From the NCBI GenBank assembly GCA_048938295.1, contig JBHLMI010000021.1, forward strand, positions 14,864 to 46,863: DNA of 32,000 nt, read 5' to 3'. This DNA is from Promethearchaeota archaeon (GTDB lineage Archaea; Asgardarchaeota; Hermodarchaeia; Hermodarchaeales; Hermodarchaeaceae). Within the stretch, counting starts at the first letter, position 1. Every line of letters begins with the position of its first letter. The notes under the pieces are model-generated. The model had not been told where the DNA came from. It saw nothing but the letters and a program-made list of their open reading frames with translations, and ran no database searches. Shown here piece by piece: positions 3,238 through 32,000 of this stretch. The position numbers were made by a program, and so were the translations under genes.

Positions 3238-3399
3238 TTAGGTGTAGGCTTGAATCTGTGGCAGCTTGCTCAGAACCATGAGAAACGTATGGTTGATATT
3301 AGCCTAGAAACCCGAGGCCTTCATAAGTACTCCTTTCTGGTGGGTGCGTGGACCTTTTCCTCTTTTATGTCCAATGTTAGGGGAACTGGTGGAAGTCTA

Positions 3400-3933
3400 A
3401 TGGATCCGTGGCTGATAATTGGGTATATCGTTATTATCATTCTCCTCTTCATCATTGCTGTAATCACCTCAGCTCTTTGGCCAACAGTAATTGGGGCAGT
3501 GTGGATACCGACTCCACGAGAAACTGCGCGAAAGATGTTGGAGTTAGCCAAGGTAACCCCTGAAGATACCGTCGTTGATTTGGGATCAGGAGATGGACGG
3601 ATCATTGTCATGGCTGCAGAAGAGTTCGGTGCTACAGCCTTGGGTATTGAAGCCGATCCGTTGCGTGTGTTGTGGTCACGGAGTATCATTTGGCGCCATG
3701 GTCTGAGAGATAGGGTGAAGGTGGTGTGGGGGAATTTCTATTCACAAAGTATCGCTGCGGCTACTGTGGTGACGGTGTTTCAGGGTCAGGCGATTAATAA
3801 AAATCTGCAGTCCAAATTGTCAATTGAGCTGAAACCCGGCACACGTGTGGTCTCCTATTCCTTCTCCTTCGAAGATTGGGACCCGGTGGAGACGCAGAAA
3901 AAACCCAATCTCTACCTTTATGTAATCGGATAG
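3400..3933 (+). CDS. Class I SAM-dependent methyltransferase with N-terminal TM helix (FAM173/archaeal protein-lysine MTase-like)
   Basis: WIPTP pre-motif, VDLGSGDGR motif I and KPGTRVVSYSF. Probable start is ATG 3400 (MDPWL), not TTG 3250. Confidence 0.8.
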   Translation: MDPWLIIGYIVIIILLFIIAVITSALWPTVIGAVWIPTPRETARKMLELAKVTPEDTVVDLGSGDGRIIVMAAEEFGATALGIEADPLRVLWSRSIIWRHGLRDRVKVVWGNFYSQSIAAATVVTVFQGQAINKNLQSKLSIELKPGTRVVSYSFSFEDWDPVETQKKPNLYLYVIG

Positions 3934-4014
3934 AGTGTCCTTTTCTCGCCTTAAATAGGCTCACCCGGAAACTTCCTGTATTGGATCGCTAAGAAGCAGC
4001 GAGGTATGACTGGG

Positions 4015-29629: not shown

Positions 29630-30081
29630 GCCACATTCAACAAGGATTGCTTGACGTGCTCTCACTAGCTTTAGTCAATATGAACACGTTGTTGTTTACG
29701 CCTTAATCTGTAGAAGAGATTAATTCCAGGGCAAATAGATTATTCGAGGAAGAAGACACAAACAGGATTCCGCGCCTTCTACTACATGGTCACACAGATT
29801 CTAGATTTCCTCAAGGGAAGTCTTAGTGAATTGAAAAACCGTCTTCTTCTATCATGAATCGATTCACCTCTCCAAGAATGTGAAAGACTCTACTAACAAA
29901 AAGTCTTGCTGAAAAAGAAAGTGGTGGTCGTATACCCCAAGGACAATATCGCTCCAGAACCAGTGCATATAGCTCCTTTCGAAACTAACACACTTAGGCG
30001 GTACGTGGCGGCCCGCTCAACACCTCGCCGAAGCTCGATGCGTACACGGCCGCTCGTTCAAACCGGTCTTCTACCGGAGCC

Positions 30082-30149
30082 TTCGTCCACGGTTCACCGT
30101 TCTAGTCGCCTAGCCCAGTGTGGACTACTCATCCAATAACCATGGAGTG
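30082..30149 (-). other. Enlarged helix 98 / ES39-like expansion segment in 23S rRNA
   Basis: About 68 nt at the position of the short H98. Sense-strand pairings: GUCCAC/GUGGAC enclosing hairpins CUAG-GCGA-CUAG and ACGG-UGAA-CCGU. Confidence 0.65.
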
Positions 30150-30169
30150 GGTGACTCGTCTCAGGACCC

Positions 30170-30200
<31 letters not shown>

Positions 30201-30326
30201 GGGCACAGCTTGGCTGCCCGGCGATGCCCCATCGGACAACCGGTACACCATAGGCTGCGATCCGCCGTTCCTCTCGTACCGAGCGGACCTTCCCCTCAAT
30301 CACCCAACGCACCCAAAAGAGAGAAT

Positions 30327-30369
<43 letters not shown>

Positions 30370-30484
30370 TTAACAGGCGTACAGCCTTACCCTTGGGAGC
30401 TAATGCACCCCCAGGATAGGAAGAGCCGACATCGAGGAAGCAAGCCGCGGGGTCGATATGGACTCTTGCCCGCGACGACTCTGT

Positions 30485-31149
30485 TTAGGGTCCCAGGTCG
30501 GTGTTACTTGGTGAGGTATTGTTGTAATCGTTCGCGCTTCTCCGGGTGAGTTACCCCAGAAACTCGGTGGAGGAAGCGTGTGAGATTCTCGCGTCCTGTT
30601 ATGAACAATTGCCATACGGTTCTGTTGGGTGGCTTGTAATAGCCACAGTGAATTTTGTGGTGTTCGAGGATGTCGCCTGCAATTCGAAGCTTCTGGATGC
30701 TTTCATTGTAGATGCTGAATTGTGGTTGTCCTTCACTGTTTTGAGTGGCAGATCCTTCAGCGTCTGCAAGTCCTCGTAACCATGCCATTTGTAGTGTTGG
30801 TTTCCACATCCGAATGTCTTCGGGATGTTCATGGATTATTTGGATCTGTGATACTAGTTGTTTGTCCCACACCTGAATACGATGTTCAGGTCGGGTCTGA
30901 CGTGGTTTTACTTGGACTTCCTTATCTGGAAGCACATGTTCGAGTGCAGGCTTGATGATTTCGGTTAGCCATCGTTCCGATTTGGATTCGATGTCAAAGA
31001 CATATCCTTCTTTGCCACCCCGCCCGAGACGGGCGTCTTCGGATGCGCCTGCGAGATAGGCGATGGTATCATTGAGAACCATTGTATTCCAGAACTATCG
31101 TAGGCAATTGAGTATTTATTCGTCTCACTGTTCTCGTCCGGCCTGAGAA
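30485..31149 (-). mobile_element. Archaeal bulge-helix-bulge-type 23S rRNA intron (665 nt) between A2450 and A2451
   Basis: Sense 5' junction GGGG-UA^U-UCUCAGG and 3' junction CCUGGGA-CCCU-AA^A-CAG give a 4-bp helix, two 3-nt bulges and a 7-bp intron stem. Cleavage after the second bulge nucleotide restores GGGGUAACAG. Confidence 0.88.
30504..31082 (-). CDS. Intron-encoded double-motif LAGLIDADG homing endonuclease (192 aa)
   Basis: Motif 1 AYLAGASEDA and motif 2 AWLRGLADAEGS. It lies wholly inside the intron, on the same strand as the rRNA. Confidence 0.88.
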   Translation of the reverse strand: MVLNDTIAYLAGASEDARLGRGGKEGYVFDIESKSERWLTEIIKPALEHVLPDKEVQVKPRQTRPEHRIQVWDKQLVSQIQIIHEHPEDIRMWKPTLQMAWLRGLADAEGSATQNSEGQPQFSIYNESIQKLRIAGDILEHHKIHCGYYKPPNRTVWQLFITGRENLTRFLHRVSGVTHPEKRERLQQYLTK

Positions 31150-31663
31150 TACCCCTGGGGTAATTTTTCTGACGTGATCGACCCTCATCGGTAGGGTTCG
31201 ATCGTTCGCTAGGCCCTGCTTTCGCACCAGCGCTCGTTGCTTTTCGGAGCACTGTTAAGCCAGCTTTTACCCTTGCGCGCTACACGCGGTTTCTGTCCGC
31301 GTTGAGCTGACCTTTGGGCGCCCATGATATCTTTTCGTGGGCGTGCCGCCCCAGCCAAACTGCCCACCTGCTGGTGTTATGCACCGTTTGGTGCATTAAG
31401 AGTTGCAAACACTGAAGGCTGGTGTTCCATTGGCGACTCCACCACCCCCGCAAGGGTGGCTTCGACGTCTCCCAGCTACGCTCTGCATCAATGCCCGTAA
31501 CCCAGCAACAGGCTGCAGTAAAACTCCACAGGGTCTTCTCTTCCCTTTGGGTGTCCCTGGACTGTTCGCCAGGAGGTGGGTTCACCGGGCCGCAGGCGGG
31601 GACAGTGGGGACCTCATTGATCCATTCATGCGCGTCGGTACTTATCCGACAAGGCATTTGGCT

Positions 31664-31963
31664 CAGTTCTGTTACTTTCTTGAAAGCGAAGTGCCTTCAA
31701 TACTGACCTCGAATTCGAGGCGGGCATGCATTTCTGCACGCCTCCAATAGTCGCCTATTGGCTCGGACTATATCTTACTTCATTGCTGAAGTTCTGGCGT
31801 ATAGTCTCTGAGGATGTCTCTCCCATGGGAGAGATCTTTCCTGCTGATTGTCTCCACTTGTGTATTTTTAGGGGTCATTCCTCTGTCACCAGAGGAGTAT
31901 CCTAACACAAGATACGCGAGAGGTTCCAGCATATAGCCAGATTTTACTAAGGCAACTCTGTTC
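31664..31963 (-). ncRNA. Group I self-splicing intron (300 nt, no ORF) after U1931 of 23S rRNA
   Basis: Sense strand: 5' exon ends ...UAAGGU and pairs with IGS GCCUUAG (U.G at the splice site). Core elements are P AUGCUGGAA, Q AAUCAGCAGG, R UCAGAGACUAUA and S AAGAUAUAGUCC, with P3 UCUGGC/GCCAGA and terminal omega-G. Removal restores AAGGU|AGCCAAAUGCC. Confidence 0.95.
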
Positions 31964-32000
31964 ACCTTAAGAGAGTCATAGTTACTCCCGTCGTTTAACA

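Follow-up and report, generated by a model that had tools for sequence, protein, structure and literature searches.

An intron with a putative I-DmoI-type homing endonuclease gene in the 23S rRNA peptidyl-transferase loop of an Asgard archaeon

Results

Position of the intron in the 23S rRNA gene

The window analyzed here is a 32,000-nucleotide (nt) stretch of contig JBHLMI010000021.1 (positions 14,864 to 46,863) from assembly GCA_048938295.1 of a Promethearchaeota archaeon (Asgardarchaeota, Hermodarchaeaceae). Toward its end lies the 3′ part of a 23S rRNA gene that is interrupted at the peptidyl-transferase centre by a 665-nt intron, and this intron contains a gene for a LAGLIDADG protein of 192 amino acids (aa). 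The features at the locus are listed below; evidence is given in brackets.

29982..32000, minus strand: host 23S rRNA gene, archaeal, 3′ part, cut by the contig end (Rfam RF02540, E 1e-244)
30485..31149, minus strand: 665-nt intron in the 23S rRNA at E. coli A2450/A2451 (exact join in intronless relatives)
30504..31082, minus strand: homing endonuclease gene, 192 codons plus stop, ATG start and TAA stop (open reading frame (ORF) list, Pfam, profile, AlphaFold2 model, dN/dS)
31744-31993, minus strand: group I intron at L1931 of the same 23S gene (RF00028, 61 bits)

An assembly-wide rRNA search returned this split gene as the single large-subunit match in the 2.5-Mb assembly. Covariance-model alignment of the gene revealed two large insertions, the group I intron and about 680 nt in the domain V GGGAUAAC segment. 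When the flanks of the second insertion were compared with uninterrupted 23S genes of same-phylum relatives, the BLAST pieces abutted with a one-base overlap, and the intronless junction read CCCCGGGGATAACAGAGTC in six genomes, CCCCGGGGGTAACAGGC in two and CCCCAGGGGTAACAGAGTT at locus L011. Deleting 30485-31149 from the window gives exactly the L011 sequence, which fixes the insertion at 665 nt and shows that CCCCAGGGGTAACAGAGT, the target reconstructed by an earlier model-made annotation of the window (hereafter the sequence-only reading), is a natural intronless allele in the same phylum. Two natural forms of the intronless junction are CCCCAGGGGTAACAGAGT and CCCCGGGGATAACAGAGT. In E. coli rrlH numbering the motif GGGGAUAAC begins at 2444, so that the exons read ...G2447 G2448 U2449 A2450 | A2451 C2452. 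The bounds 30486-31150 are equally compatible with the DNA, in which the A is duplicated at the exon ends, and U2449|A2450 (= L2449) fits the DNA sequence alone just as well because both exon ends offer an A.

The intron-encoded protein

The ORF takes up 87% of the intron (579 of 665 nt), leaving 86 nt of non-coding sequence, with 66 nt before the ORF and 19 nt after it. Pfam LAGLIDADG_3 (PF14528) matched residues 98-174 (37.4 bits against a cut-off of 22.5, E 3e-9) and was the only Pfam family found for the protein at E values up to 10, LAGLIDADG_2 not being matched. The first half of the protein was too divergent for the LAGLIDADG_3 hidden Markov model and was recovered by profile and fold. 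A single-sequence search of the PDB matched I-DmoI weakly (E 0.1), while a family profile built from 21 sequences found I-DmoI as the best PDB match at E 1e-8 across residues ~21-170, with the HMMER alignment placing the second motif on I-DmoI 'GLYVAEG'. The two motifs and their putative catalytic residues map as follows.

31032..31061, minus strand: LAGLIDADG motif 1, AYLAGASEDA, residues 8-17 (conservation; helix 5-16 in the model)
31035-31037, minus strand: D16, putative catalytic Asp (ends the motif 1 helix; invariant)
30753..30782, minus strand: LAGLIDADG motif 2, WLRGLADAEG, residues 101-110 (conservation; helix 95-109 in the model)
30756-30758, minus strand: E109, putative catalytic Glu (ends the motif 2 helix; invariant)

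Within the 21-sequence alignment, A8, Y9, L10, G12 and D16 of motif 1 (AYLAGxSEDA) and G104, D107, A108, E109 and G110 of motif 2 (GLADAEG) were invariant. Conservation extended to 31 wider relatives with identities down to 21%, in which G12 was again invariant and D16, G104, D107, E109 and G110 were each at least 90% conserved. The spacing between Gly and Asp in motif 1 is one residue shorter than the canonical LAGLIDADG spacing. Across the wider relatives this motif reads G-A-x-x-D-G/A, indicating that the short spacing characterizes a whole archaeal family and is not decay of this copy.

An AlphaFold2 model built with the alignment had a mean predicted local distance difference test score (pLDDT) of 93.2 and a predicted TM-score (pTM) of 0.90, and its elements follow the duplicated alpha-beta-beta-alpha-beta-beta-alpha order (H-E-E-H-E-H..., twice). 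LAGLIDADG enzymes place their catalytic acids at the ends of the motif helices, just before a strand. In the model, helix 5-16 ends at D16, with a strand from residue 17, and helix 95-109 ends at E109, again followed directly by a strand. I-DmoI entries ranked first in Foldseek (E 9e-11, TM about 0.7). VIA-align gave the nominally best match to the endonuclease domain of the archaeal intein PI-PfuI (PDB 1dq3; Z 20.4, root-mean-square deviation (rmsd) 2.5 over 181 residues), followed at less than one Z unit by I-DmoI (Z 19.5, rmsd 2.8 over 171 residues, 22-24% identity) and by I-Tsp061I (Z 18.8), then WhiA and intein endonucleases. Identities in the group of I-DmoI, PI-PfuI and I-Tsp061I were 17-24%, whereas I-SceI and I-WcaI reached Z 13.7-14.3 at 10-11% identity (I-SceI: Z 14.3, 10%).

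The sequence-only reading had described a 192-aa ORF with two LAGLIDADG helices (a GASEDA variant and GLADAEG) that fills most of the intron, had proposed one candidate acidic catalytic residue per motif, and had predicted a compact single-chain enzyme of the size of I-DmoI. Each of these points agrees with the alignment and model, and both halves of the double LAGLIDADG fold were recovered by the family profile and by structure prediction.

The ORF is full length relative to its family, and dN/dS was 0.18 over 192 codons against the 88%-identical homologue at locus L035 (dN 0.06, dS 0.35), which together indicate purifying selection on the endonuclease protein. In the remaining unsaturated homologue pairs dN/dS ranged from 0.08 to 0.39.

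Same-site homologues and free-standing relatives

A database search with the 192-aa protein returned 23 homologues at 57-95% identity. For homologues with at least 57% identity, nine distinct loci included both flanks (L022, L023, L024, L030, L031, L032, L036, L038 and L039; 57-66% identity), and in all nine the 23S gene is interrupted at one and the same point by an intron with shared ends, GGGGTA | (A/T)T... and ...ACCCTAA | ACAGAG; L039 belongs to Candidatus Thorarchaeota SMTZ1-45. A 38% identical protein from another archaeon (P0027, loci L027/L028) occupies the same junction with different intron ends, bringing the number of distinct homologous genes at the identical 23S site, GGGG(G)TA|ACAG, to at least ten. 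Three other relatives (P0023, P0026 and P0028) lie beside ordinary ORFs with no rRNA gene detected around them and look like free-standing copies of the same clade. In a maximum-likelihood tree the same-site proteins, P0027 and the free-standing relatives formed one clade with 100/100 support, within which P0023 and P0024 were sister to the main same-site group. Relatives with readable context were either in a bulge-helix-bulge (BHB)-type intron at this site or free-standing, and none was in a group I intron.

The surroundings of several relatives had features of their own. Relatives 37-58% identical lie in A/T-rich DNA with no rRNA gene detected (L025:384-1250, L026:571-1158 and L029:547-1116), and P0023 bears a charged N-terminal extension of about 100 residues. 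Downstream of the same intron at L024 (3160-3990), an insertion of ~32 nt follows GGCTTGCTT and is also present in L021; L024 has in addition a second LAGLIDADG_3 ORF of 207 aa (3359-3982), an indication that its 23S gene holds additional introns.

Two exon positions next to the intron also differ in this lineage. At window position 31152 (23S position 2448, in the peptidyl-transferase loop) there is a G instead of the consensus A, and at 31156 (23S position 2444) an A, for which the partner strand has a compensating U. G2448 was present in 14 of 14 intron-bearing alleles examined and in some intronless relatives (L010, L011 and L012); it could reflect lineage history or co-conversion with the intron. 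The A2448/G2448 polymorphism, lying beside the insertion point, might separate sensitive from resistant alleles.

Intron ends and the splicing endonuclease

We detected no group I intron in 30485-31149 using Rfam with relaxed thresholds over 29800-32000, a search that did recover the neighbouring L1931 intron. The intron ends could instead be arranged around a central helix H with a three-nucleotide bulge on each strand and an inner helix h′, with a further helix inside the intron.

31152..31155, minus strand: central 4-bp helix H, exon strand GGGG (G2445-G2448), pairing with CCCU at 30487-30490
30487..30490, minus strand: central helix H, intron strand CCCU, pairing with GGGG at 31152-31155
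31149..31151, minus strand: 5′ bulge of 3 nt, UA|U, predicted 5′ splice site (splice geometry)
30484..30486, minus strand: 3′ bulge of 3 nt, AA|A, with A2451 as third nucleotide (splice geometry)
31142..31148, minus strand: inner helix h′, 5′ strand UCUCAGG, pairing with CCUGGGA at 30491-30497
31141/30498, minus strand: invariant C/A mismatch beyond helix h′ (alignment)
31138-31140 / 30499-30501, minus strand: CGG/CCG extension of helix h′ (alignment)
30491..30501, minus strand: 3′ strands of helix h′ and of the CGG/CCG extension (alignment)
31124..31128, minus strand: further intron helix, 5′ strand GUGAG, pairing with CUCAC at 30511-30515 (covariation)
30511..30515, minus strand: further intron helix, 3′ strand CUCAC, within the last ORF codons (covariation, folds)

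Cleavage in BHB motifs occurs at a fixed position within the bulge, and we placed the splice sites by this general rule: cutting each strand behind the second nucleotide of its bulge yields exactly the exon junction seen in the DNA, GGGGUA+ACAG. Helix H was invariant in all 13 introns of this family, so that its support is geometric. Helix h′ did vary, with five of its seven pairs (pairs 2-6) changing as CG/UA/UG, AU/UA/CG and GC/AU among seven distinct sequences, two-sided changes included. The further helix covaried as well, as GGUGAG/CUCACC in L004 and GGCGAG/CUCGCC in L003, and was predicted both in folds of the short introns described below and in co-folds. The same BHB geometry recurred with other inner helices in L027 (ACAC/GUGU) and L016 (CUACAC/GUGUAG). 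We conclude, from the sequences compared, that the intron ends form a relaxed BHB motif, in line with the sequence-only reading, which had placed a BHB-type rather than a group I intron at the peptidyl-transferase centre.

The genome encodes two paralogues of the tRNA-splicing endonuclease EndA, which are 29% identical.

L033:1222-1782 (contig C1), plus strand: EndA paralogue, 186 aa (PF02778 + PF01974)
L034:1462-2052 (contig C19), minus strand: EndA paralogue, 196 aa (PF02778 + PF01974)

His residues in the aligned active-site segment are kept in the 186-aa protein only, and the sequences suggest a heteromeric pair of a catalytic and a structural subunit. Heterotetrameric EndA tolerates relaxed BHB motifs, and the host enzyme may do so for this intron too.

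A short A/T-rich element precedes the endonuclease gene.

31113..31120, minus strand: A/T-rich box AATAAATA, ~30 nt upstream of the ATG (comparable box at the same place in seven homologous introns)

The box stands just past the 5′ strand of the covarying helix, both in the window and in L022, L023, L024, L030, L031 and L032, with variants such as AATAAATA, ATAATAAATA and TTATATA. It may act as an internal promoter of the archaeal TATA-like kind, from which a near-leaderless mRNA would be made.

ORF-less introns at the same site and a head-to-tail intron contig

Three same-genus genomes (G006, G002 and G011; loci L003, L004 and L005) have ORF-less introns of 145-148 nt with conserved ends at the same 23S site. 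Their first 28 nt and last ~47 nt resemble the intron of the window, while the middle ~70 nt do not align, and tblastn found nothing significant in the way of ORF remnants in these mini-introns. The private central hairpins of the three (GUGCUC.../...GAGCAC and GCGG/CCGC) covary among them. A fourth ORF-less intron, of 344 nt and A/T-rich, occurs in a genome from another family of the phylum (G021, L016) at the identical A2450|A2451 site with BHB-compatible ends, and no endonuclease remnant was detectable in it. Such a pattern, in which the site is occupied and one gene is intact while several have been lost, is classically associated with a homing endonuclease that has reached fixation, as described by the homing-cycle concept (PMC1654191, PMC4496867).

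One metagenome contig (L035, carrying P0002; JGI 3300036462, Ga0373520_007134, 1291 nt) consists of intron sequence only, without exon, in a head-to-tail arrangement within positions 1-1188. The junction reads ACCCTAA|TTCTCAGG (as RNA, ACCCUAA-UUCUCAGG), and the period is 664 nt with two units that are 92% identical. The contig could be an assembly from circular excised introns of two strains. A scan of metagenome contigs with a degenerate 20-mer for the head-to-tail junction, in a collection that did not include the L035 contig, gave 44 hits, all 44 of them chance matches with unrelated flanks.

Discussion

The gene, its fold and conserved acids, purifying selection on the protein, the same-site distribution of its relatives, the RNA motif with covariation and the EndA genes together make it highly probable that the 665-nt insertion is a mobile archaeal rRNA intron with its own I-DmoI-type homing endonuclease gene, spliced by EndA; that the protein cleaves DNA, where exactly it binds and cuts, and that EndA does the splicing we infer from these results. 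The protein would consist of two pseudo-symmetric halves, with the motif helices packed against each other and D16 and E109 directed at a metal-dependent active site. By analogy with I-DmoI, it would bind ~20 bp of uninterrupted 23S rDNA around GGGGTA|ACAGAG and cut both strands to leave 4-nt 3′ overhangs, after which repair from an intron-bearing copy would transfer the intron to the cleaved allele. As RNA, the intron would not be self-splicing; its ends would fold into the relaxed BHB motif, the host EndA (two paralogues of ~190 aa) would cut it out, and ligation of the exons would restore the peptidyl-transferase loop. Given the position of the gene, with at least ten distinct homologous genes at the exact site, cutting of the intronless junction by the 192-aa protein is plausible.

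The closest known system is I-DmoI, from an archaeal intron in the 23S rRNA gene of Desulfurococcus mobilis (PDB 1b24, 2vs7). Both are single chains of ~190 aa that contain two LAGLIDADG motifs, the helix of motif 1 closing with an Asp and that of motif 2 with a Glu, and both are encoded in a protein-spliced archaeal 23S intron. They differ in sequence (19-24% identity), in the Gly-Asp spacing of motif 1, which is one residue shorter here, and in host, a crenarchaeote against an Asgard archaeon; the protein described here is known by sequence and model. The target region of I-DmoI, which we take to lie ~500 nt upstream in the covariance alignment, is uninterrupted in this 23S gene. PI-PfuI, the nominally best fold match, differs in lying within an intein that is spliced at the protein level, the 192-aa protein having no intein domain. 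Like the present protein, I-Tsp061I (PDB 2dch) and I-Vdi141I (PMC2602781), from crenarchaeal rRNA introns, are archaeal LAGLIDADG enzymes on highly conserved rDNA. Their sites differ from the one described here (L1927 for I-Vdi141I), and I-Vdi141I works as a homodimer in which each chain has a single motif.

Several observations weigh against a mobile, EndA-spliced element. The site is occupied in all four same-genus genomes in which it is visible, and the enzyme may therefore be running short of targets and could be beginning to decay. Motif 1 is non-canonical, with one residue fewer between Gly and Asp and an acidic E15 where motif 2 has Ala. Cleavage by members of the clade is predicted by analogy. 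On the RNA side, the outer exon-exon helix of the strict hBHBh′ form was not found, as CCCCA and CAGAG are not complementary and their pairing was absent from the folds. Minimum-energy folds recovered the BHB for some homologues only: the minimum-energy co-fold of L022 shows it, while on the window's own ends an exon hairpin ACCCC/GGGGU is preferred. Support for the motif therefore comes from covariation and splice geometry and not from minimum-energy folding.

One alternative is a decaying or domesticated homing endonuclease, a folded and conserved protein that no longer cuts and either has another role, such as binding of the intron or pre-rRNA, or has not yet been lost. Besides the departure of motif 1 from consensus, the occupancy of the site in every same-genus genome where it is visible, with three of the four already without the ORF, would fit decay, as would the alignment of S33 and A112 with Q42 and K120 of I-DmoI, residues that we take to belong to the periphery of the active site. 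A protein released from function is harder to reconcile with a dN/dS of 0.18 over 192 codons, with an ORF that is full length compared with its family, and with the invariance of both acids and all motif glycines across ~20 homologues from several lineages. As for a role in splicing, BHB introns to our knowledge need no maturase and none has been described. We consider decay or domestication unlikely, if the strongest of the alternatives, and favour an endonuclease that still serves a mobile intron.

A second alternative, raised in the sequence-only reading as an exchange between intron classes, holds that the protein belongs with the group I intron enzymes of L2449 (the I-SceI family) and moved from a group I into a BHB intron. 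I-SceI, from the omega group I intron at L2449 of yeast mitochondrial 21S rRNA (PDB 1r7m), is likewise a monomeric double-motif LAGLIDADG enzyme. Its intron lies in the same GGGAUAAC segment of the peptidyl-transferase loop, either at the position described here or one nucleotide away, its recognition region overlaps the target proposed here, and a group I intron is present in the 23S gene of the window. In other respects I-SceI stands apart: it has 235 aa and 10% identity, belongs to another intron class, and lies with I-WcaI well below the Z 18.8-20.4 of I-DmoI, PI-PfuI and I-Tsp061I. LAGLIDADG_2, which we take to be the Pfam family of I-SceI-type enzymes, was not matched by our protein, for which LAGLIDADG_3 was the sole family, and group I introns contained none of the relatives with readable context. 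Sequence family, identity and structural ranking thus group the protein with I-DmoI, intein endonucleases and I-Tsp061I and not with I-SceI. In favour of such a transfer, Pfam LAGLIDADG families including LAGLIDADG_3 have been reported in archaeal group I introns (PMC6125680). Overall we find kinship with I-SceI very improbable and do not retain the proposed exchange; the likeness is better read as convergent use of the same conserved rDNA target. A documented case of this kind is that of I-Vdi141I, from an archaeal intron, and I-PpoI, from a group I intron of a eukaryote, two unrelated enzymes that target almost the same rDNA site (PMC2602781).

For a self-splicing intron, the RNA features already described leave little room. 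Group I introns end in G, and this intron ends in A. A group I or other self-splicing intron with a ribozyme core overlapping the ORF is the least credible explanation of all, since, although this gene does have a group I intron and other organisms have them at neighbouring L2449 (PMC3679873), there was no Rfam hit at relaxed thresholds, only 66 nt upstream and 19 nt downstream lie outside the ORF, the ORF-less versions of 145-148 nt are too short for a group I core, and the ends fit a BHB motif with covariation.

The mobile BHB intron with an I-DmoI-type enzyme is a known kind of selfish element, at a 23S site for which we found no report. The literature we searched, with incomplete coverage, contained nothing specific on archaeal introns or endonucleases described at L2449/L2450, nor on rRNA BHB introns in Asgard archaea. 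More tentatively, and with somewhat less than even confidence, we propose that the clade represents compact single-chain meganucleases of an independent archaeal lineage, whose ~20-bp specificity, centred on A2450/A2451, would be new. On this view the clade converged with I-SceI on an rDNA hot-spot from a different intron class, spread among Asgard lineages including Thorarchaeota, has free-standing relatives and may carry an internal promoter.

These findings leave current concepts unchanged. To make a working ribosome from the only 23S gene found in its assembly, the host would depend on two different splicing systems, a group I ribozyme and EndA; a single archaeal rRNA gene that holds both BHB and group I introns has been reported before (PMC6125680). 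With one intact gene and three ORF-less introns, the site provides a snapshot of the homing cycle within one Asgard genus. The family is well supported and probably active, and would extend the small set of compact single-chain LAGLIDADG scaffolds by an I-DmoI-type member with a putative new target. Not only group I introns but also protein-spliced archaeal introns would thus use the centre of the peptidyl-transferase loop for homing.

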